Notes: generated by a model not told the origin, from the sequence alone. A stretch of 64,000 nt of DNA from Kiritimatiellia bacterium (GCA_033812795.1 JAPXSY010000006.1:16755-80754); one strand, 5' to 3'; shown: positions 8,838 to 50,939, counted from the first letter of the stretch. Made by a program: numbers and translations.

Positions 8838-9177
8838 CCCGCTTCCTTTAACTGATGGTTCTGATCCGGGACCAGTATATACCCATCCCGTCATTCAATC
8901 CAGCGCAACGCGAGAATAACAGGAACGCCGAACGCCGGTATGGCACGGGCATCTTGCCCGTGTTTCATGGGCGGGACACCCATGCCGCAAAATTCTTCGA
9001 TCCATGCCCCCAAAAAATCTTCGTGTTCTTCGCGTCTTACCGCCGTCATCCCGCGGCCCCAGCGCACCAAACGTCCCGCATCTCTCATCACGCACCCTTT
9101 CAACGCGGGCTTCTCCCGCAACCTGATCGGCACAACCTGTTTGGAATCGGCAGGGCGTACGGTCTCAGGCGCAGAGT

Positions 9178-9679: not shown

Positions 9680-12600
9680 TCAGGCCTTCTCCACATGCAG
9701 GCCGACCGCGTGCCCGTTCAACTCGATCACCGGCCCATGCACTTCATCGAACCGGATGCCCTCACACAGCGTCTCGGCTTTCACATAATCCGCGTACTGT
9801 TCGATCGCCTCGCGCACCTCGGCCCCGCACGCCACCGTAACCCGGATACGCTGCGTCACCTCGTACCCCGCCTCTTTGCGCAGGTTCTGCACACGGCTGA
9901 CCCACTCACGCGCCAACCCCTCGCGGATCAACTCAGGCGTCAGCGCGGTCTCGATCCCAACGATCACATCGTCCTCAGAGGCCACGACCATCCCCACTTT
10001 GGGAGTCCGCCGCACCACCACGTCCCCGGCACAAAGGGTCATCGATTCGCCCCCGACCGCAATCGAAACCTCGCGCCCCGCGGCAAGCGCGGCAGCCTCG
10101 GCAGAGGAAAGAGCGGCGATGGCCGCCGCGACCGCCTTCATGCGAGGGCCGACCCGGGGACCCAGCTGACGAAAATCGGCTTTCACCGAGACATCAGCCA
10201 TAACGGTCTCGTCCTCCCCATATGCCACGGTTTTGATGTTCAGCTCATCGGTGATCAGATCCTCATACCCCTGCAGGATCGCGCGAAGACCGGCATTCCC
10301 GGAGACCACATGCAGCACCGCGAGGGGCTGCCGAATCTTCAGATCGTTCTCGGTACGCAACTGGCGGCCAAGCCGCACCACCTGCTGCACCCGGGCCATC
10401 GCGCTTTCCAACGCCTCATCACGGCCCGCCGCATACGCCTGCGGAAAATCGCACAGATGCACCGACTCGGGCATTGAGGCGCCGCGCAGATTACGGTATA
10501 TCGCCTCGCTGATGAACGGCGTGAACGGTGCGGCCACCTGACAGAGCTGCACCAGCACATACCGCAAGGTCCGGTAGGCGTGCGTCTTGTCTTCGTCGTT
10601 CTGAGATTTCCAGAAGCGGCGGCGGCTCCGCCGGATATACCAGTTGGTCAGATCCTCAATAAACGTGACGAACGGGCGCACGGAACGCTGCAAGTCGTAT
10701 CCGTCCATCGCCACCGTCACATCCCGGATCAGCGTCTCGAGCGAACTGACGATCCAGCGGTCCAGCACATTCGGACTCTCGGGACGGACCACCTCGGCAT
10801 CGTCAAACCGGTCGACGTTCGCGTACGTGACGAAAAAGCTGTAGGCGTTCCACCATGGGATCAGCAATTCGCGCAGAATCTGTTTTACGCCGGTTTCGGA
10901 GAAACGCAAGTTCTCGGCGCGCACCACCGGCGAATAAATCATGTAGAGCCGCAGCGCGTCGGCCCCGTACGCATCGAGAATGTGCGACGGGTCCGGGTAG
11001 TTCTTGAGGCGCTTGGACATCTTCTTGCCGTCCTCAGCCAGAACCAGACCGTTGACGATCACGTTCTTGAAGGGCGACTGGTCGAAGAGACAGGTCCCCA
11101 GCACCATCAGGGTATAGAACCAGCCGCGGGTCTGATCCAAACCTTCCGCGATGAAGTCCGCCGGGAAGAATGTGGAGATGTCCTGCCCGCCCTTCCCTCT
11201 CTTCTCCTCAACTCCTAAATCCTCAACTCCTAAATCCTCACTCCTCACTCCTAAATCCCCGAAGGGGTAATGCTGCTGCGCGTATGGCATGGCTCCCGAC
11301 TCGAACCAGCAGTCAAGCACCTCGGGCGTGCGCCGGTAGACCTTGCCGTCGCGCCGGATCACAACGCGGTCAACGAAATGCTTGTGCAAATCCGTGACGC
11401 GTTCTCCGGAAAGCTGCTCCAATTCCGCCACCGAACCCACGCAGATCTGATCCGCGGGATCATTCTCATTGATCCAAACCGGAATGCAGGATCCCCAGAA
11501 ACGGTTACGGCTGATGTTCCAGTCGCGCGCCTCGTTCAGCCAGTTGCCGAACCGCTTTTCGCCGACATACTCCGGCATCCAACGGACCGTAGCGTTGTTG
11601 CGCGTCAGCCGCTCATGCAGATCCTCGACGCGCACGTACCAGGCCTCGATAGCGCGATAGATGAGCGGCGTGTCCGTACGGTCGCAGAAGGGATAACTGT
11701 GCGTCACAGTAGTCTGATGCACCAACTTGCCTTCACGCTTGAGCCACTGGATCAGATCCTTGTCGCAATCCTTGCAGAACCGCCCCTGACACTCAGGCAC
11801 CGCCTCGGTGAAACAACAAGCGGCATCCAATGGATCCGCGATGACGCTCAAACCGGCCTGCTGGCAGACCCGGAAATCGTCTTCGCCATAAGCCGGCGCC
11901 ATGTGCACCAGTCCGGTTCCGTCCTCCGTGCTCACGAAGCTGTCAGTCAGCACACGGAACGCGCCTGCGTCCCGATACTCCGCAAAATGAGGGAAGATCG
12001 GCTCGTAGGTCCAATCCCGCAACGCCTCGCCCTTGAGACGCGCCAGCACCTCGTACGCGCCCGCATCCTTGTAATACACCGGAAGCCGGGCCTCCGCCAG
12101 CACAAAGACGGTCTCGTCCTCACAGTCGCGCACCACCACGTAGTCGATCTCCGGACCGACGCAGATCGCCAGATTCTCGGGCAGGGTCCACGGTGTGGTC
12201 GTCCAAATCAGCAGATAGGTCGTACCCCATGCGGGCTCGGCCCCCGAACGCACGCGCACACGAACGGTCACAGCGGGATCCTGCACGTCCTTGTAGTTGT
12301 TGCCCGCCTCGAAATTGCTGAGCGGCGTGCTGAGTTTCCAACTGTACGGCATGATCCGGTAGGATTTATAGATACGCCCCTGATCCCAGAGCTGCTTGAA
12401 CACCCACCAGATGCTCTCCATGAAACCGGGGTCCATGGTTTTGTAATCGTTGTCGAAATCGACCCAGCGCCCCATGCGCGTAACGGTCTTGCGCCACTCT
12501 TCGACATACGTGAGCACCATGGAGCGGCACTGCTCGTTAAAGGCGGCGACGCCGAACTCCCGAATCGCCTGCGCGCCGCTGACCCCCAGAGCCTCCTGCG

Positions 12601-12895
12601 CCAAGGCCTCGATCGGCAGTCCGTGGCAATCCCAACCGAACCGGCGTTCCACATGGTGGCCGCGCATCGTCTGATACCGCGGCACGATGTCCTTGATCGT
12701 ACCCGCCAGCAAATGCCCGTAGTGCGGCAAACCGGTCGCAAAAGGCGGCCCATCATAAAAAACGTACTCGCGTTGTCCCCGGCGTTGCTCCACGCTTTTC
12801 CGGAAGGTGTCGTGCGACTCCCAAAACGCCAGCATGTCACGTTCCATGCCGGGAAAATCCGTTTGCTTCGATACAGGTTCAAACATAAGATTCAC
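9680..12895 (-). CDS. ileS: Isoleucine--tRNA ligase (type 2)
   Basis: 1071 aa. HIGH-like motif: PHYGHLL. KMSKS motif: KMSKRLKN. The editing (CP1) domain is present. There is an in-frame tandem-repeat insertion (DLGVRSEDLGVEDLGVEE). Confidence 0.92.
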   Translation of the reverse strand: MNLMFEPVSKQTDFPGMERDMLAFWESHDTFRKSVEQRRGQREYVFYDGPPFATGLPHYGHLLAGTIKDIVPRYQTMRGHHVERRFGWDCHGLPIEALAQEALGVSGAQAIREFGVAAFNEQCRSMVLTYVEEWRKTVTRMGRWVDFDNDYKTMDPGFMESIWWVFKQLWDQGRIYKSYRIMPYSWKLSTPLSNFEAGNNYKDVQDPAVTVRVRVRSGAEPAWGTTYLLIWTTTPWTLPENLAICVGPEIDYVVVRDCEDETVFVLAEARLPVYYKDAGAYEVLARLKGEALRDWTYEPIFPHFAEYRDAGAFRVLTDSFVSTEDGTGLVHMAPAYGEDDFRVCQQAGLSVIADPLDAACCFTEAVPECQGRFCKDCDKDLIQWLKREGKLVHQTTVTHSYPFCDRTDTPLIYRAIEAWYVRVEDLHERLTRNNATVRWMPEYVGEKRFGNWLNEARDWNISRNRFWGSCIPVWINENDPADQICVGSVAELEQLSGERVTDLHKHFVDRVVIRRDGKVYRRTPEVLDCWFESGAMPYAQQHYPFGDLGVRSEDLGVEDLGVEEKRGKGGQDISTFFPADFIAEGLDQTRGWFYTLMVLGTCLFDQSPFKNVIVNGLVLAEDGKKMSKRLKNYPDPSHILDAYGADALRLYMIYSPVVRAENLRFSETGVKQILRELLIPWWNAYSFFVTYANVDRFDDAEVVRPESPNVLDRWIVSSLETLIRDVTVAMDGYDLQRSVRPFVTFIEDLTNWYIRRSRRRFWKSQNDEDKTHAYRTLRYVLVQLCQVAAPFTPFISEAIYRNLRGASMPESVHLCDFPQAYAAGRDEALESAMARVQQVVRLGRQLRTENDLKIRQPLAVLHVVSGNAGLRAILQGYEDLITDELNIKTVAYGEDETVMADVSVKADFRQLGPRVGPRMKAVAAAIAALSSAEAAALAAGREVSIAVGGESMTLCAGDVVVRRTPKVGMVVASEDDVIVGIETALTPELIREGLAREWVSRVQNLRKEAGYEVTQRIRVTVACGAEVREAIEQYADYVKAETLCEGIRFDEVHGPVIELNGHAVGLHVEKA
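11200..11260. repeat. In-frame coding tandem repeat inside ileS with an approximately 15-nt unit CTCCTAAATCCTCAA (variable)
   Basis: The sequence ctcctcaactcctaaatcctcaactcctaaatcctcactcctcactcctaaatcc translates on the minus strand to (DLGVE)-like repeats between HYPFG and FPADFIAEG of IleS. Confidence 0.8.
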
Positions 12896-34030: not shown

Positions 34031-34151
34031 TTCCGAACGAGCCGTACCGCAACATGCCCATGAGTAAACTTCATGCTCTTCGTATCCTTGTGGTGTAACA
34101 ACATGTTATTGCGTTTGTTGATCCGTAAGGCACTGCCGAAAACTTCGACGT

Positions 34152-35678
34152 TCAGCGTTCGACGTTCAGCGTTCGACGTTCTTCCCCGGTCTCATGTTCC
34201 CCCTGGACGCTGCGCCGCATGCGCTCATAGAGGCTGCGGTGCTCGCGCAGGATCGCGTCACATGCTTTCAGCACTTTGTCCAATGTGCCGTTGGCGGACC
34301 GGTACCACCGTTTGATCTCATCCAGATCCGCCACGCGTACCCCGTTGCCGAACGTGTCCAGCGCCGGATCGATATTCCGGGGCATGCCGAGGTCGATCAG
34401 CGTCACACCGCGCGGATTCAACCGGGCACCATGCTCCAACCGGTTCAGCACCGGCTCGGATGCATTGACCGCACTCACCACAGCGTCAATCGTGGGCAGC
34501 ACACGCGCCAGGTCTTTCAGCTGGATCACTTCGATCCGGTGCGCGTCTTGGGCGCTCGACGCGGGCGCGTTGCGATGATAGGCCCACACGCAATGGCAGC
34601 CGCGGCGCAGCAGATCCTCCATCAGCCCCTGCCCGACCACCCCCGTGCCGATCACCAGCACACGGCTGTCCGGCAGCGCCGGCAGCTGTTCCGCCAAGTA
34701 CCGCAACGCCAAATCCTCGATCTCCGCGACGTCCAGCAGCGGCTCCACCTCATGACGGATATCCTTGGAAATGTGCAGCGCCGCATCGCACAACTCCCGG
34801 ATGACCGATCCCGCCCAACCGAACGTGACGGCCTCATCCACCGCCTCCTTCACCTGAGAGACCACATGGAACTCGCCCGGCGTCTGCGAATCCATGCCAG
34901 CCGCGACCAGGCACAGGTGCGCGAACGCGTCAAACCCGCGCTTCATGTAAAACCGGTCCGGCGGCAATTGGTCGAACCGCAGCAACCTCCGCAAAATCCC
35001 GCTGGTTCCCGCCTCGCGCGAAATCGCGGCCACCACTTCAATACGGTTGCAGGTGTTGAGAATGAAAAACTCATGCACACCCCAGATCTGCCGGATCATC
35101 CCGCCAATCGCCTCGCGTTCCCGCAACAGCAAATGGAATGGCGCACGTTCCTCAGCCGAAAGGTACTCATGACTGGTACCCAGCACCAGCAGATCCGAAT
35201 TTTCGATCGAATCCAGATGTTTCCGAAGATTTTCTTTCACCAGCCGCGATTGCCGACAGGATTTGCCGCTGGTGGAGACGGCGACCAGCACATCCCCGGT
35301 GCGGATAATAGCGGGCGTCACAAAATCCCCGTCCGGCCAATTCCCGTCCGCGCAGCAGCACAGAATCCGATTGGCTTGTGCGCTTTCGAGAACGGTTCGG
35401 TTGACGCGCTTGTCATCCGTGCAGGCGAAGACCATCGCCGCGCCCTCCACATCGGCCGGCTCAAACCGGCGAGCCGTATGGTGGATCGCCCCGGTTTCGG
35501 CCAGGGTTTGCAATTCCGCCACACAGTCCGGACACACGAGCCGAACCTCGGCGCCCGAATCCAACAAAAGCTCGACTTTGCGCTGCCCGACGCGTCCGCC
35601 CCCCACAACCAACACGCGGCGACGCTCAATCATCGCGTTGATCGGAAATGTCTTTCGAACCGGTCTTGTGTCTCGCAT
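34152..35678 (-). CDS. hemA: Fusion of siroheme-synthase-type precorrin-2 dehydrogenase/sirohydrochlorin ferrochelatase N-domain with glutamyl-tRNA reductase (HemA)
   Basis: N-terminal Rossmann fold: RRVLVVGGGRVGQRKVELLLDSGAEVRLV. HemA catalytic region with the TCNR(I/T)E motif: FILNTCNRIEVV. An NADPH-binding domain follows. Confidence 0.75.
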   Translation of the reverse strand: MRDTRPVRKTFPINAMIERRRVLVVGGGRVGQRKVELLLDSGAEVRLVCPDCVAELQTLAETGAIHHTARRFEPADVEGAAMVFACTDDKRVNRTVLESAQANRILCCCADGNWPDGDFVTPAIIRTGDVLVAVSTSGKSCRQSRLVKENLRKHLDSIENSDLLVLGTSHEYLSAEERAPFHLLLREREAIGGMIRQIWGVHEFFILNTCNRIEVVAAISREAGTSGILRRLLRFDQLPPDRFYMKRGFDAFAHLCLVAAGMDSQTPGEFHVVSQVKEAVDEAVTFGWAGSVIRELCDAALHISKDIRHEVEPLLDVAEIEDLALRYLAEQLPALPDSRVLVIGTGVVGQGLMEDLLRRGCHCVWAYHRNAPASSAQDAHRIEVIQLKDLARVLPTIDAVVSAVNASEPVLNRLEHGARLNPRGVTLIDLGMPRNIDPALDTFGNGVRVADLDEIKRWYRSANGTLDKVLKACDAILREHRSLYERMRRSVQGEHETGEERRTLNVER

Positions 35679-45471: not shown

Positions 45472-48048
45472 TTGGCAATGCCCAAAATGGGGGTAAGCGG
45501 GATGAATCGAAATGCGGGAATGTTGTTGGCGATCGTGCTTTCATTGCAAGTCAGGGCAGCGGGTGATCCGGCAGCGGTAGCGGCGTGGGAAAAGTCGGGA
45601 CGCGCGGAAACACTCGAATGGTTCAAACGCCATTGGTTCGGCGTGCGCCCGGCGGAACGTTTGGCGGATCAAGAGATCGGCGAGGATTACGTCGCGTGCC
45701 ACGGCGGGCAGATCAGGATCAACATTTACGTGAAGCTTCCGGAAGGCGCGAGTGCCGAGAACCCGGTGCCGGCTTTCATCTTCGGCGACCACTACAATCC
45801 CAAGACAAGCAGAACCAAGACAGACACGATGCCGGGAATCCCGACGAACGCGATCGTCTCGCGCGGCTACGCCTACATCCGGTTCAATTTCAATGACGTG
45901 ACGCCCAACACCAACCAAGGGTGCCACGACCCGTCAAGCGCCAACATGAAACTCGGCGGAATGGGCAATCCCGACAGCTGGGGCACGATCTCGGCTTGGG
46001 CGTGGGGTTTCTCTCGCGTAATGGACTGGGTGGAGACACGGCCGGAACTGGATGCGAAACGCATCGCGGTAATCGGACACTCCCGCGGCGGCAAGACCGC
46101 GCTATGGGCCGGATGCACTGACCAACGCATCGCGCTCACGATTTCGAACTGTTCCGGTACCGGCGGGGCGCGTTATTTGCATATGCCGCTCAAAGGAATG
46201 GAAACGCTGGACTGGATGAAAGACCATGCGACGCGGCACTGGTTCTGTCCGAGCTGGATACCGACCTATCGCAACCGCGAGACGGAAATCGAGCATGATG
46301 CGGACGAAATGATCATGCTCATCGCGCCGCGGCGAGTCTACGTGGCAAGCGGGTCGGAAGATAGCTGGGCAGGTCCCGCAGGCGAGTTCGAATCGGCCAA
46401 ACGCGCGTCGGCGCTCTGGGAAGCCTATGGACACAAGGGGCTTTCGCTCGACACGTTCCCGGTGCCGGGTACGGTCGACCACTCCGGCCGGGTCGGATAC
46501 CATTTGCGTCCGGGAGCGCACGCGATCAGGCCGTGGGACTGGGACCGCTACATGGACTTCATGGACAAACATCTGCCGGGGCCGAAAAAGGCACCCCCGA
46601 AAGCGATGGAGCCCGCGGCACCGGAATCGCAACGTGTCCAATCAGAGGCCATCCTCGCGTGGATCAACGCCTTGGAAGCCTTTTTCGACGGCGGCGAGCA
46701 AGGCTCTGTTCACGGCTTTTCGATCCTCCGGCACGGCAAAGTGATTGCCGAGGGCAGTTGGAAACCGTTCGACACGCTGCATGAGACACACATGCTCTAT
46801 TCGCTCTCGAAAAGCTTTGCCTCGACCGCGATCGGATTGCTGGTGGATGACGGCAAGCTGGACTTGGACGAACGGATCACTGACCTCTTTCCGGAATACG
46901 TTCCGGCGGAACCATCCGAAAACCTGAAGGCGATGCGTGTGCGCGATCTGCTCTCCATGAATGTCGGCACGAGCCATGCCGATCCGCACAAGAAAGACCC
47001 CGGCGGCGATTGGGTGAAGATGTTCGTCACCAACGTGATCGACGGCAAGCCCGGCCAGGCTTTCAGGTACGACAGCAGCGCCACCCATGTGCTGGTCGCG
47101 ATCGCCGAGAAGAGAAGCGGCAGGACGTTTTTGGATTTCATCGGGGAGCGGCTCTTCGACCGGATCGGCATCGGGAAGAATGCCTGGACCACTTATTCGC
47201 CGACCGGTATCGCTTGCGGCGGATGGGGGCTCAATCTGACAACCCGCGACCTGGCGCGGTTTGGACAACTTTATCTGCAGCGCGGTGTCTGGAACGGCGA
47301 AAGGGTCTTGTCGCGAGAGTGGGTAGAACTCGCGACAGCCCGGCACACCTGGAACGGCGGGATTGTCGGCACGCGTCCGGATGACGACTGGGCGCAGGGG
47401 TACGGCTTCCAGTTCTGGCGCTGTGTTCCCGAGGGCGTTTACCGTGCGGACGGGGCTTATGGCCAATACACGATTGTGTTGCCCGATCAAGATATGGTGG
47501 TGTCAATGCACGCCGGGGTCAAAAGCATGGGCAAAATATTAAAGCTGACCTGGGAACACCTTTTGCCCGGAGTCAGGAACGTCCCGTTGCCGGTGAACAC
47601 GGTCGGTGAGGAAGCGTTGCAGAAACGTCTTGGCGGTCTCGCCATTGCCCCGGTAAAAGGCTCGGTCGCGGAAGGCGCGTATTTCGGCCGGGAACTCGCT
47701 CTCAAGGAAAACAATCGCGGCATCAGGTCAATCCGCCTCGACCGCGAAGGCGAAGGATGGAAGTGTACGCTCGTGACCCGCGCCGGGGAAAACGCGTTCC
47801 CGGTCGGATGCGGCGTTTGGGCAAAAGGCACGATCAGGATCGATACGGAGAAATACGAAAAGCCTGGCGGACTTATCGGAGTGCAGCCGACGGTGGCTTC
47901 GGGTGGCGTGGATGCGGACGGCGTCTTCCGCATGAAGGTTTTCCTGACCGGAACAACCGCTTACCTTTCGTTCGAAATCTCAGAAAAGCAGATTCTGGGC
48001 CGACTTTTTGCCATAGACGGATGCCGGTTTGAGGGGAAGACGGAATAA
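45472..48048 (+). CDS. Secreted two-domain hydrolase: an N-terminal alpha/beta-hydrolase (glucuronoyl-esterase/acetyl-esterase-like) and a C-terminal beta-lactamase-fold serine hydrolase
   Basis: A signal peptide comes first. The first domain has the nucleophile motif GHSRGGKTALWAG. The second domain carries S-x-x-K (SLSKSF), a YxN-like element and further class-C-like elements. Confidence 0.65.
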   Translation: MAMPKMGVSGMNRNAGMLLAIVLSLQVRAAGDPAAVAAWEKSGRAETLEWFKRHWFGVRPAERLADQEIGEDYVACHGGQIRINIYVKLPEGASAENPVPAFIFGDHYNPKTSRTKTDTMPGIPTNAIVSRGYAYIRFNFNDVTPNTNQGCHDPSSANMKLGGMGNPDSWGTISAWAWGFSRVMDWVETRPELDAKRIAVIGHSRGGKTALWAGCTDQRIALTISNCSGTGGARYLHMPLKGMETLDWMKDHATRHWFCPSWIPTYRNRETEIEHDADEMIMLIAPRRVYVASGSEDSWAGPAGEFESAKRASALWEAYGHKGLSLDTFPVPGTVDHSGRVGYHLRPGAHAIRPWDWDRYMDFMDKHLPGPKKAPPKAMEPAAPESQRVQSEAILAWINALEAFFDGGEQGSVHGFSILRHGKVIAEGSWKPFDTLHETHMLYSLSKSFASTAIGLLVDDGKLDLDERITDLFPEYVPAEPSENLKAMRVRDLLSMNVGTSHADPHKKDPGGDWVKMFVTNVIDGKPGQAFRYDSSATHVLVAIAEKRSGRTFLDFIGERLFDRIGIGKNAWTTYSPTGIACGGWGLNLTTRDLARFGQLYLQRGVWNGERVLSREWVELATARHTWNGGIVGTRPDDDWAQGYGFQFWRCVPEGVYRADGAYGQYTIVLPDQDMVVSMHAGVKSMGKILKLTWEHLLPGVRNVPLPVNTVGEEALQKRLGGLAIAPVKGSVAEGAYFGRELALKENNRGIRSIRLDREGEGWKCTLVTRAGENAFPVGCGVWAKGTIRIDTEKYEKPGGLIGVQPTVASGGVDADGVFRMKVFLTGTTAYLSFEISEKQILGRLFAIDGCRFEGKTE

Positions 48049-48051
48049 ATT

Positions 48052-48565
48052 GGTTTCAGGTTTCTGGGTTTCAGGGTTTCAGGGTTTCTGGGTTTCATCC
48101 AAATCGGGGTCGGGATCGCTATCGGGATCGCTATCGGGTTTCAAGGTTTCTGGTTTCAGGGTTTCAAGGTTTCATCGCTATCGGGATCGCTATCGGGATC
48201 GCTATCGGGTTTCAGGGTTTCAAGGTTTCTGGTTTCTGGTTTCAGGGTTTCAGGGTTTCAGGGTTTCAAGGTTTCATCGCTATCGGGATCGCTATCGGGT
48301 TTCAAGGTTTCATGGTTTCATCGGGGTCGGGATCGCTATCGGGATCGCTATCGGGTTTCAAGGTTTCTGGGTTTCATCGCTATCGGGATCGCTATCGCTA
48401 TCGGGATCGATCATTTCACCACGGAACACCACCGCCTCACAGCCTCACACCCTCACAGTCTCACAGTCTCACAGCCTAACAGCCTAACAGCCTAACAGCC
48501 TCACAGTCTCACAGTCTCACAGTCTCACAGCCTAACAGCCTCACAGCCTCACAGCCTCACAGCCT
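48052..48565. repeat. Composite minisatellite array of about 510 bp. Blocks of 7/8-mer GG(G)TTTCW and 12-mer GGGATCGCTATC interleave, followed by about 17 copies of the 8-mer CCTMACAG/TCTCACAG.
   Basis: It is directly visible and begins 4 nt after the stop codon of the 45472..48048 gene. It lies between convergent genes. It has no spacers, so it is not CRISPR. Confidence 0.9.
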
Positions 48566-48595
48566 TTGAGATTGCGGGCTCCGCCCGCATCTCAA
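48566..48595. terminator. Strong GC hairpin (TTGAGAT-T-GCGGGC-tcc-GCCCGC-ATCTCAA) at the end of the satellite. It is a putative bidirectional terminator between convergent genes.
   Basis: The stem is 13 bp with one bulge. There is no U-tract. A related motif TGCGGGCTCCGTCCGCA recurs at 56701-56717. Confidence 0.45.
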
Positions 48596-48656
48596 TACGG
48601 CTCGGCACAGATCATCAACAAGGAGCGGAACGCTTTCAGCCAACCCGTTCTTTTCG

Positions 48657-50939
48657 TTATAACCCCTTCTGGTTTTTTCCGGCTTCAAGAAGCGTGACGG
48701 GGCCGTTCACCGCAAGGGCCACATAGACCTTGCCGTCTTCCCGTGTCTGCGTCTTCACGCACGAGGCGGATAACCCCGCCGCCGGCAGCATCCCCTCCCG
48801 GAAGACGAGCGTGAAGGACTGGGGTTTCTTGACCGTCGCGTTCGGTGTCAGGCGCAACGTCGCGAGTCGGCCGTCCTTGACACAGGCGTCGGCAAGGAGG
48901 CCTCCATGCGCCGGCAGCCGGAAGGCGTAATTCTTCCACTCGTCCGGCACACCGATGCCAAGCCGCAACTCATCCCCGGCGTTATGCAGGAGCATGTGGC
49001 ACAGGGCGACAAGCACATTGCCCGAGGCGGTCGAGAACCAGGGATGCGCGACAACCGTGCCGGGCTCGTTGATCTCGAAGGTCTCGCCGAACAATCCCGT
49101 CACGCCAGCGGCCTCGCGCAGCAGTTTGACCGGCTCCACGTTGTCTTCCAACAGGGTCATGGCAACCGCCATCTTGCCCGCATACCAAGGACAGATTTGT
49201 TTGCCGACCGGATACATGTTGCCAGCGAGGCGGCCGTCCCGAATGAAGCGGTAGGCCGCTTCACGCTGCAAGTCGTTGCTTTTGTCAAAGATCGGATACG
49301 GGAAGAGCCCTCCCAAGGTGGCCACGCTGGGAACCGTGCAGTTTTTGTAAGCGATGTAAGCTCCGTCGCGATGCGGCAGCGAGGCAACCAACTTGTCAGC
49401 CGTTGTTCTGAAATCCGCCGCCTCATCCAGATTCATGTGAAGCCGTTCAGCCGCATCCGCTGCGGCCCGCAAGGTGTAGATCGCGCCGCAGGTGGTCATG
49501 AACGGTCGCTCGCGCGCCGGGCCAAGGCGCTCCAGATCAGTGCACTTGCCGATGTACCACGTGCCGTCGGAATCCTCATACACCCAGTGCGAGCGGTAAT
49601 AGCGGGCACACTCGATCAGAACCGGATACCCGACTTCCTTGAGGTATTCTAAATCCCCACTGTAAAGGTACTGCGTCCAAACGCTTTTCGCGATATTGGA
49701 CATGTGGAAGATGTGGTCTAGCCAGAAGCCCTGCGGCGCTCCCTCCACGCGCCCGTCCTCATACGATTCCCATAGATAGCGGGCGCCATACTTGCCTTTT
49801 CTGCTGTAATGGCTCACACGGGCGCATGCGGTTTTCAACAGGGCTTTACGGAACTCCGGACACCGGCGGGCCACGGCGACGTGATTGGCGAGCAACAACC
49901 CCTGATGGCAGAACATCTCGTCCCATCCGAAGTATTTCCCATGCCAATGCCCCGGGAAGATCCCCACGGGGAAAGACCAGCGCGTGGCATTGACGCGCAG
50001 GTGGTACTGCGCGACATCGATCATACGCTGGATTTTCGGCTCCGGTACCTCAATGGACGATTCGCCGTGATATGCGGCCCAAGCCTGCTCATGCTCGCGC
50101 AACAGGGCGTTGAACCCGTTGTCCCAAACCCACTGGCGTGTGTTTTGGATGCGGTCGGCAAGCTTGCCGGAATCTAGCGTGTCTTCATACTGAATGAAGA
50201 ACGTGGTGACTTTCCGCTCACCGGGCTGAAGGGTAAATGTGGCGGAAAGCGTTGCGTCCCGGTCGTTCTTGACCGTGTAGTGTGCCGGTTCGTCCGCTCC
50301 TTTATAGGCCGCGATCATCGCATCACGGATGTCATTCCCGTAAGTCCGGCAGGAATAGACGGCGTAACGCGTTTCTTTACGCCACGCCCACGTTCCGGTC
50401 AGGCGCGGATGTTTGGGCGCCTGAAAGATGTAGTCCAACGTGACCTCCAGCGGCGCGGTTGCCGTGGAGACCAATGTGCGGCGGAAGGCGATCAGGTTAC
50501 GGGTAAGCGGCACGATGATCTCGCTCTCGATGCGGAGGCCGTTCGTGTAACTGTTGCGGCTGAACAGTGTCGCGCGCCGGACATCCAGCTCCTGTTCCCA
50601 GACATCCGGATAGTCACGCAATACCCCGCCGATGATAACGCGGTGGTTGAACTTGCCGAACTCGAACAATCCGCCATCGGGGGGCGGCAATCTCCGGCCA
50701 GCCCAGTATATGGCCGGTCTGATCCCGGCATAGCTGCGCTCGCGCATACCGCACGTCCAGTCAACGGTCATGCTCAACTCACCGTTACCCAACAGCGGGG
50801 GCACGTAGCCCTGCGGACAAGCATCCCCCGTGCCACAGACCAGCCCCTTTAACGGATCGCCCCCTGTCGCGGCCGAGACCGCCAAAGGCAGGAGGCCCAG
50901 CGCCACAAACAACATATGCCGCATCCTTTGCGTTCCCAT
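48657..50939 (-). CDS. Secreted (alpha/alpha)6 six-hairpin glycoside hydrolase-like protein, family uncertain
   Basis: 760 aa. A signal peptide is present (MRHMLFVALGLLPLAVSAA). It has a beta-sandwich N-domain followed by an alpha-toroid core (…GKYFGWDEMFCHQGLLLANHVAVARR…). It lies in a carbohydrate-active gene context. Confidence 0.45.
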   Translation of the reverse strand: MGTQRMRHMLFVALGLLPLAVSAATGGDPLKGLVCGTGDACPQGYVPPLLGNGELSMTVDWTCGMRERSYAGIRPAIYWAGRRLPPPDGGLFEFGKFNHRVIIGGVLRDYPDVWEQELDVRRATLFSRNSYTNGLRIESEIIVPLTRNLIAFRRTLVSTATAPLEVTLDYIFQAPKHPRLTGTWAWRKETRYAVYSCRTYGNDIRDAMIAAYKGADEPAHYTVKNDRDATLSATFTLQPGERKVTTFFIQYEDTLDSGKLADRIQNTRQWVWDNGFNALLREHEQAWAAYHGESSIEVPEPKIQRMIDVAQYHLRVNATRWSFPVGIFPGHWHGKYFGWDEMFCHQGLLLANHVAVARRCPEFRKALLKTACARVSHYSRKGKYGARYLWESYEDGRVEGAPQGFWLDHIFHMSNIAKSVWTQYLYSGDLEYLKEVGYPVLIECARYYRSHWVYEDSDGTWYIGKCTDLERLGPARERPFMTTCGAIYTLRAAADAAERLHMNLDEAADFRTTADKLVASLPHRDGAYIAYKNCTVPSVATLGGLFPYPIFDKSNDLQREAAYRFIRDGRLAGNMYPVGKQICPWYAGKMAVAMTLLEDNVEPVKLLREAAGVTGLFGETFEINEPGTVVAHPWFSTASGNVLVALCHMLLHNAGDELRLGIGVPDEWKNYAFRLPAHGGLLADACVKDGRLATLRLTPNATVKKPQSFTLVFREGMLPAAGLSASCVKTQTREDGKVYVALAVNGPVTLLEAGKNQKGL

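Follow-up and report, generated by a model that had tools for sequence, protein, structure and literature searches.

The bacterial repeats closest in kind to the object of this study are the miniature inverted-repeat transposable elements (MITEs) and the modular intergenic repeats, among them pneumococcal BOX (boxA-(boxB)n-boxC), the Correia elements of Neisseria and the bacterial interspersed mosaic elements (BIMEs) of E. coli, which are short, non-coding and dispersed in intergenic DNA, have inverted-repeat ends that pair into a rod-like fold, carry a variable number of internal modules, are frequent at gene 3' ends and show short target duplications. Arrays of 7-nt-class units are another kind of intergenic repeat, exemplified in Cyanobacteria by the short tandemly repeated repetitive (STRR) sequences, with units such as CCCCAGT. 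Arrays of the heptamer TAACTGA have been described in Beggiatoaceae, Cyanobacteria and Bacteroidetes, together with mixed heptamer assemblages and contigs ending in repeats (MacGregor 2015, PMC4679880); they mostly comprise 2-6 copies just upstream of start codons, and no inverted-repeat-bounded carrier was described for them (PMC4679880). Here we analyzed a 64,000-nt stretch of DNA from a Kiritimatiellia bacterium (GCA_033812795.1 JAPXSY010000006.1:16755-80754; the whole stretch is called the window), in which three interleaved short-repeat families and a hairpin occupy positions 48052-48603, between two convergent hydrolase genes. We consider it likely that this segment is an end-truncated and internally expanded copy of a dispersed, non-coding modular element of Kiritimatiellia.

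The element shares with BOX, Correia and BIMEs all the traits listed above, but it has no sequence similarity to them, it belongs to a Kiritimatiellia host and no cognate transposase was found among the fetched family loci. Its body, moreover, consists mostly of three microsatellite-type modules (6, 7/8 and 8 nt) which expand to hundreds of bases, and whole A-J-B(-M) modules (defined below) are iterated in tandem. In common with the STRR and TAACTGA arrays, the locus has intergenic 7-nt-class units, several unit types per spacer, the same unit in distant lineages and contigs that break in the repeats; however, the units are others, the window arrays are placed between the stop codons of two genes and form part, as modules, of a dispersed element, so that the array is not a member of this group and the resemblance is one of kind only. 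Variable-number tandem repeats (VNTRs) and minisatellites offer a third likeness, in copy-number polymorphism between near-identical strains, 56-nt higher-order units and slippage or unequal exchange, but ordinary VNTRs are locus-specific, whereas the window array belongs to an element with many copies, and the others vary as well. The object is ordinary in kind (a repeat element plus a VNTR); what is new is the family, and what is unusual is its construction from three microsatellite modules that can expand. What appeared to be a local satellite leads to a family of repeat elements not described before, in the uncultured, polysaccharide-degrading lineage Kiritimatiellia; within an incomplete coverage of the literature, we found no paper on such repeat elements in Kiritimatiellia.

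The window array shares its module order with a dispersed element family

Occurrences of the arrays were counted, as a first-pass annotation made from the window sequence had proposed. An exact search for two GGGATCGCTATC 12-mers, in one genome per species, returned 100 stretches from many phyla, the closest of which is an unrelated locus in a long-read Kiritimatiellia metagenome-assembled genome (MAG; L018) that has, in the same order as the window, A units, TCCAAATC, two 12-mers and GGGATCGAT..TTTAACCACGGAACAC. A scan of metagenomes for the junction between A units and hexamers yielded at least 118 contigs, mostly from the sample series that holds the window locus, of which 2-3 are chance coding matches (L124, L128). 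Among the matches listed, these contigs cluster to about 82 distinct sites, which do not include the window locus and have no flanks in common; the unshared flanks argue against the sites being segmental duplications of the window locus. TCCAAATC stands between A-block and hexamers in most of the junction contigs, as it does in L018, and the linker module M occurs in most family copies. The modules and the two body plans are as follows.

L, CCTAAAAAGAGCAGTTGA, and R, TCAACTGCTCTTTTTAGG: inverted ends, about 18 nt
A: (GGTTTCW)n
J: TCCAAATC
B: (GGGATC/GCTATC...)n
M: linker ...ACCACGGAACAC
C: (CCTCACAG)n
H: hairpin, TTGAGATTGCGGGCTCCGCCCGCATCTCAA
Q: conserved tail, CCAATGTTTACGGGGCTTTGCT
Type 1: L-A-J-B-M-m-Q-R, about 283 nt, with a long hairpin (m) after the linker
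Type 2: L-A-J-B-M-C-H-Q-R, about 240 nt, with the C-block and the H hairpin after the linker
Iterated forms: (A-J-B-M)n

Full copies measure 232-300 nt, many of them 240-283 nt, and are short, non-coding and dispersed, as MITE-like elements are; none gave a Pfam or Rfam match. A 243-nt type-2 copy (el2, in L127) has the module order of the window and is 93% identical to it over 48376-48466 (hexamers, linker and first octamers) and 98% identical over 48535-48596, the latter being el2 positions 118-179, which match the module H region. The copy in L163 and L230 reads L-(A-J-B)x4-M-C-H-Q-R, that is, the window plan plus ends. Both terminal inverted repeats are present in 29 copies. Of 25 copies compared, 6 have identical 5-nt sequences immediately to either side of CCT...AGG, and 10 have four or more of these positions matching (offset controls, 3/225); the target resembles TTWAM. 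Copies without the 5-nt duplication have presumably decayed or recombined. A full type-1 copy is predicted to fold into a rod with its ends paired (-125.6 kcal/mol, z = -9.9). Judged from their sequences, the ends and duplications of the family fit transposition of a MITE-like element.

These data changed the picture given by the first-pass annotation, which had described a satellite assembled at this locus and capped by its hairpin. The module order is instead the fixed body plan of a family found at about 82 other sites among the matches listed, and the hairpin is a family module that is almost invariant at 15 or more other loci, where two variants were seen, neither of them compensatory. 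The annotation had also suspected a genome-wide repeat-generating process; something genome-wide does occur, but it appears to be largely the spread of the element, followed by local slippage. The family would show how microsatellite arrays are seeded throughout a genome by a mobile carrier and then expand locally. Block length differs between samples at other family loci too (L163 versus L230, L139 versus L158, L143 versus L176).

Two pairs of contigs from different samples (L139 and L158, L130 and L175) have one flank in common and the other different, which suggests, on sequence comparison, rearrangement through recombination between element copies; copies of the element can mediate rearrangements. 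Other repeats, namely CTCCTAA, TTAGGA(A/T), CCTCTGCG and reverse-complement A and C blocks, lie inside or adjoin the copies in L131, L139, L173, L134/L238 and L178/L239, and several of these extra types resemble units of the other repeat loci of the window.

Anatomy of the window copy

The array was parsed by direct reading of 47700-48900, by Tandem Repeats Finder (TRF) and by unit-by-unit tokenisation, all of which agree. They bear out the three repeat families, their alternation and the hairpin, as first annotated. From the upstream stop codon onwards, the features are:

48046-48048, + strand: stop codon of the upstream gene, then 3 bases (ATT) before the array
48052-48097, + strand: A-block 1, six GG(G)TTTCW units
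48098-48105, + strand: junction motif TCCAAATC (module J of the family), joining A-block 1 to the hexamers
48106-48135, + strand: hexamer block 1, GGGGTC and two GGGATCGCTATC
48136-48174, + strand: A-block 2, five units
48177-48206, + strand: hexamer block 2, GCTATC and two 12-mers
48207-48276, + strand: A-block 3, nine units (TRF score 98)
48279-48296, + strand: hexamer block 3, GCTATC and one 12-mer
48297-48352, + strand: A-block 4 (48297-48320) and hexamer block 4 (48323-48352), a 56-nt higher-order unit (TRF period 56), carried in two copies by L104, L107 and L108
48353-48376, + strand: A-block 5, three units
48379-48408, + strand: hexamer block 5, GCTATC, one 12-mer, GCTATC, GGGATC
48409-48434, + strand: linker GATCATTTCACCACGGAACACCACCG (module M of the family), 26 nt, non-repeat
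48435-48562, + strand: C-block, 16 YCTMACAG octamers
48563-48603, no strand assigned: module H, CCTTTGAGATTGCGGGCTCCGCCCGCATCTCAATACGG, with the hairpin at 48566-48595; family homology stops here

By its module order the window copy is of type 2; it has five iterations of the A/hexamer pair, and its C-block has expanded to 16 units. The five A-blocks hold 26 units (13 GGGTTTCA, seven GGTTTCA, five GGTTTCT and one GGGTTTCT), and the five hexamer (B) blocks hold eight GGGATCGCTATC 12-mers, against 0.02 expected from shuffles, plus seven single hexamers (GCTATC, GGGGTC, GGGATC). The octamers are CCTCACAG (six), TCTCACAG (five), CCTAACAG (four) and CCTCACAC (one). About 17 octamer copies had been annotated initially; the octamer array is there, but the parse gives 16, and the 17.0 of TRF include a trailing CCT. 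The CCTAA/ACTAA core to which the same annotation had drawn attention is visible in the units, but no meaning for it is supported. TRF scores across the array reach 216, with higher-order periods of 44 and 56 nt.

Strand composition switches at the linker, from G/T-rich in the A and hexamer blocks to C/A-rich in the octamers. In the hairpin at 48566-48595, a stem of 13 pairs, with a single T bulged out, carries a 3-nt loop; folding is predicted at -20.2 kcal/mol for the + strand and -21.0 for the - strand (z about -4.4), a stability reached by none of 200 shuffles. The window element as a whole folds worse than its shuffles (z = +2.1; A-block z = -1.0, C-block z = +1.6), which fits arrays of strand-asymmetric composition that are unable to self-pair. 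In these folding models, H is the sole structured part of the window element.

Array length is hypervariable between near-identical strains

By exact-protein look-up, the same locus was found in at least 14 independent contigs from NCBI, ENA and JGI assemblies; it is neither absent nor unique elsewhere, as the first-pass annotation would have expected of an assembly artefact. Array lengths were measured from the end of the upstream gene to the sequence that immediately follows the hairpin, both taken as fixed anchors, and flank mismatches were counted against the window over up to 4.4 kb:

Window: array 547 nt (reference)
L104, L107 and L108: array 675 nt, flank mismatches 0/4400
L106: array 619 nt, flank mismatches 0/4400
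L109: array 606 nt, flank mismatches 5/4400
L110: array 379 nt, flank mismatches 5/3397

Eight more contigs (L101, L102, L105, L111-L115) stop in the array or at its edge, and elements of this kind break short-read assemblies. Compared with the window, the 675-nt form has one more 56-nt unit (three A units, GGGGTC and two 12-mers) and an octamer block longer by 72 nt, while L109 and L110 have a module order unlike that of the window. Alleles differ by whole modules and by unit order, and the order and number of C-block units vary; the modular organisation and change by whole modules that had been read from the window alone are thereby substantiated, for instance by the 56-nt unit duplicated in L104. 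Since the locus combines head-to-tail short units with five array lengths between strains whose flanks differ at 0-5 positions, it is, on comparison of these alleles, hypervariable and VNTR-like, and its array lengths are hypervariable strain markers in essentially identical flanks.

Proposed history of the window copy and points against it

The account we favor would begin with a type-2 copy, or a fragment of one, that came to sit between the two hydrolase genes and lost its ends. As the differences between alleles suggest, its microsatellite modules would then have grown and shrunk by slipped-strand mispairing within blocks, and misaligned (unequal) exchange between the repeated A/hexamer modules would have produced gains and losses on the 56-nt scale. 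Having lost both ends, the window copy is probably immobile. Most likely it is selectively neutral or selfish DNA tolerated between two gene 3' ends, in which the conserved hairpin would be at most an incidental, putative RNA 3'-end structure.

Several observations weigh against this account. No left inverted repeat lies upstream of 48052 and the window locus shows no target duplication, so that a transposition origin of this copy is inferred from the family and not seen at the locus itself. A remnant of the right end in 48604-48656 was not significant (214 of 500 shuffles reach its score), and family similarity ends at about 48603. The count of about 82 sites comes from metagenome contigs that carry no taxonomy and is not a number of copies per genome. 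An autonomous partner, that is, a long left-right pair with a transposase, was absent from 0.95 Mb of family loci, and mobility of the element is to that extent putative. The five array lengths all come from short-read assemblies, and some of the differences could be assembly errors. Lastly, the copies are biased in their placement with respect to genes. By crude calls of open reading frames (ORFs), the right end faces a gene 3' end in 28 of 34 family copies, and left-hand genes that share the strand of the element end 0-50 nt before it; this 3'-end bias, together with the near-invariance of H, could reflect function and not neutrality.

Alternative explanations

Such a function would be that of a cis-acting RNA or DNA device, kept by selection at gene 3' ends and serving as a bidirectional transcription stop, an insulator or an mRNA 3'-end stabiliser between convergent genes; activity would reside in the hairpin, and the G/U-rich arrays, which are unstructured, would act as spacers or bind proteins. 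This is possible, though we hold it to be unlikely. In its favor, the hairpin folds stably whichever strand is taken (-20 and -21 kcal/mol, z = -4.4) and is near-invariant at 15 or more loci; gene 3' ends are preferred on the right side in the proportion given above, convergent spacers are over-represented (9 of the 19 cases in which both neighbours were called), and elements begin within 50 nt past stop codons, 3 nt in the window, with each array G-rich on the sense strand of the gene adjoining it. Yet the hairpin lacks a following T/U tract on both strands, no terminator-like site was found in the array or at the left end of a full copy, array length ranges from 379 to 675 nt between near-identical strains, and an orthologue of the downstream gene at 83% identity has no such element in its 186-nt spacer. 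Moreover, a near-invariant hairpin without compensatory changes is equally explained by recent spread, and a 3'-end bias is expected of any MITE under purifying selection against promoter insertions.

Scans for known signals gave nothing at the locus. The search for intrinsic terminators (a stem-loop followed by a T/U run) was empty over 48049-48656 and at the ends of a full copy, no sigma-70-like promoter site was present in the array, in the spacer or at the left end of a full copy, and Rfam 15 had no match in the window at gathering score and none in 47900-48750 at E <= 1. Covariation was considered as evidence for the hairpin and set aside, there being too little variation and the two variants not being compensatory. 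We also rejected a G-quadruplex role: the sole + strand G3N1-7 x4 motif of the window lies at 48066, in A-block 1, and A units vary between GG and GGG.

A wider origin for the hexamer module is conceivable but doubtful. It would be one arm of a widespread, undescribed cassette, 5'-(ATCGNN)n...(NNCGAT)n-3', carrying or once carrying a PF05635 gene (Avd-like / 23S-rRNA-intervening-sequence), and the Kiritimatiellia element would be its one-arm, non-autonomous derivative. The idea arises from the 100 genome matches (L001-L100), in which the exact 24-mer (GGGATCGCTATC)x2 occurs in Desulfobacterota, in the Chromatiaceae isolates Thiohalocapsa and Thiorhodococcus, in Planctomycetota, Opitutales, Lentisphaerae, Hydrogenedentota, Riflebacteria, Nitrospirota and Acidobacteriota, among others. 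There, the 12-mer usually stands within an (ATCGNN)n array, and a strict reverse-complement (NNCGAT)n array lies within 1.5 kb, after it in 58 cases and before it in 5. Typically 10-150 nt separate the two arms, whose outer flanks, likewise inverted repeats, vary from genome to genome. For about 5 of the 100 matches, a PF05635 ORF lies in the loop, and the 3' arm encodes its acidic C-terminal tail (…DPDSDSDLDPDD); a contig of Kiritimatiellia type (L132) contains A units, TCCAAATC, hexamers, a decayed PF05635 gene and reverse hexamers. The likeness to 23S rRNA intervening sequences thus consists in B-type hexamer arrays that form inverted arms around PF05635 ORFs or their remnants, in several phyla and in L132. 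The window copy, however, has no inverted partner and no PF05635 ORF and lies outside any rRNA gene, and so lacks what defines the cassette: the array contains 14 forward triple-hexamer matches, no reverse partner is near it, and the only reverse array of the window is at 1199-1222. If the cassette were real, it would extend over Desulfobacterota, Chromatiaceae, Planctomycetota, the Planctomycetes-Verrucomicrobia-Chlamydiae (PVC) group, Hydrogenedentota, Acidobacteriota and others, and its short-repeat arms would be kept by a sequence-specific process and not by chance slippage.

Two related ideas were discarded, namely conservation of the TCCAAATC boundary across phyla, which is unsupported (GAAATC is the outer unit seen most often, and a single genome supplies most of its occurrences), and a phage origin of the hexamer arrays, the 12-mer pair having 0 matches in 2.9 million viral contigs. 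Some further observations concern the same repeats. The Desulfobacteraceae MAG S24.Bin080 contains a MITE-like element of its own, GGCATCCTTCAT...ATGAAGGATGCC, which measures about 150 nt, has an inner stem of the same hexamers and is present in more than 25 fetched stretches (L003, L007, L009, L023 and over 20 further loci). Arrays of GGGTTTCW occur in six IMG/VR viral contigs (L116-L121), right after a stop codon in L118 and L120, which belong to the sample series of the window's host, and as the reverse complement immediately upstream of ribosome-binding sites in L116 and L119; L121 has about 25 units. The lone reverse hexamer array at 1199-1222 (GATCCC/GATAGC type, TRF unit CGATCC), for which no forward partner was seen, follows closely on the stop codon of a sigma-54 activator gene (1257-2624, - strand).

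It is very improbable that the array is a satellite born in situ from three independent microsatellites, with no mobile element involved. The 44- and 56-nt higher-order periods, alleles that differ by whole modules and the missing inverted repeats of the window copy are what such an origin would leave. But the module order, the non-repeat junctions (TCCAAATC, GATCATTTMACCACGGAACAC) and the 30-nt hairpin recur at about 82 unrelated sites among the matches listed, many of them bounded by inverted repeats and 5-bp duplications, and independent origin of all these is not credible.

Still harder to sustain is the view that the array as written does not exist, being an assembly artefact or a collapsed or expanded repeat. 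Short-read contigs do often end in the array, as in the eight listed above, and individual lengths may be wrong. Nevertheless, NCBI, ENA and JGI assemblies made from different samples by different assemblers contain the array with identical flanks, and the 675-nt form was obtained three times independently. In k141 contigs, array sequence lying within 141 nt of unique flank is anchored, yet unit order already differs between samples: L101, with the first 61 nt of its octamer block anchored in unique sequence, differs in unit order from both the window and L102. The run of three CCTAACAG units in the window is absent from the longer, 675-nt allele, and the window form is therefore not a simple assembly collapse of that allele.

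Two further readings can be dismissed, a protein-coding repeat (the 152-aa ORF at 48029-48487) and a known array type, for example clustered regularly interspaced short palindromic repeats (CRISPR). An open frame does cross the A and hexamer blocks, but the absence of stops from the units suffices to keep all three + frames open, the 7- and 8-nt units shift the frame, the 56-nt allele difference is not a multiple of three, codon-position GC is flat and the ORF has no Pfam family, while units of 6-12 nt that abut without spacers are unlike CRISPR, with its repeats of about 24-48 nt and unique spacers, as the first-pass annotation had rightly held.

Flanking genes and host

The position of the array between two convergent hydrolase genes, already proposed from the window sequence, was confirmed by Pfam matches and coordinates:

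45502-48048, + strand: serine hydrolase gene, Pfam PF22244 (glucuronyl-esterase-like, GCE_fung) and PF00144 (Beta-lactamase); stop 3 nt before the array
48657-50915, - strand: glycoside hydrolase (GH) gene of GH65/GH95-like type by Pfam, 752 aa; stop codon 62 nt from the hairpin

The exact upstream protein is recorded as 'serine hydrolase [Kiritimatiellia bacterium]'. For the GH65/GH95-like protein, a recorded sequence (P0001) is 100% identical and starts 8 codons into the 760-aa ORF; a GH43 gene adjoins this gene. For the flanking hydrolases, secretion is putative, a signal-peptide-like N-terminus being the sign of it. According to the source names of both flanking proteins and of the isoleucyl-tRNA synthetase (IleRS), the host is an uncultured Kiritimatiellia MAG lineage. 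In GCA_035407705.1, the neighbourhood consists of housekeeping and carbohydrate-active enzyme genes, with no transposase, reverse transcriptase or other mobile-element gene among the neighbours. The GH orthologue at 83% identity (L103) has another neighbour gene across its repeat-free 186-nt spacer and is uninformative on an empty site.

Other short repeats in the window

Short-repeat loci had also been noted near both 400 and 11200 in the window. They are real by TRF (401-508 and 11205-11258) but of a different kind, being in or adjoining coding sequence. At 11205-11258, a 15-nt repeat (TCCTCAACTCCTAAA, 2.8 copies) forms an in-frame insert in the IleRS gene (9680-12886, - strand), encoding ...HYPFG-DLGVRSEDLGVEDLGVEE-KRGKGGQDISTFFPADFIAEG between two conserved catalytic-domain motifs. 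All close strains have the same insert; in a more distant cluster member (P0158), the loop at this place is another one and shorter by 11 aa. At 457-508, (CCTCTGCCTAAR)x4 encodes the C-terminal tail ...GRGAGRGLGRGLGRGG of a NifX-like ORF (434-877, - strand; PF02579 just below the Pfam cutoff), and at 401-451, (ACTAATGC)x6 spans the stop codon of this ORF and runs into the spacer upstream of a DUF5320 gene (50-292, - strand). The repeats at 401-508 thus show that short repeats in this genome also intrude into coding sequence.

A perfect TTCGACGTTCAGCG repeat of 2.7 copies at 34144-34181 overlaps the 3' end of an ORF (34152-35678, - strand). A second dispersed repeat, a 45-nt double hairpin (GGCACGGGCATCTTGCCCGTGTTTCATGGGCGGGACACCCATGCC), is located at 8942-8986 and is 98% identical in L018 (2700-2745), a different Kiritimatiellia MAG; its first hairpin is present in 11 fetched loci, including L159, L174-L176, L195, L201, L205, L208, L216 and L236.

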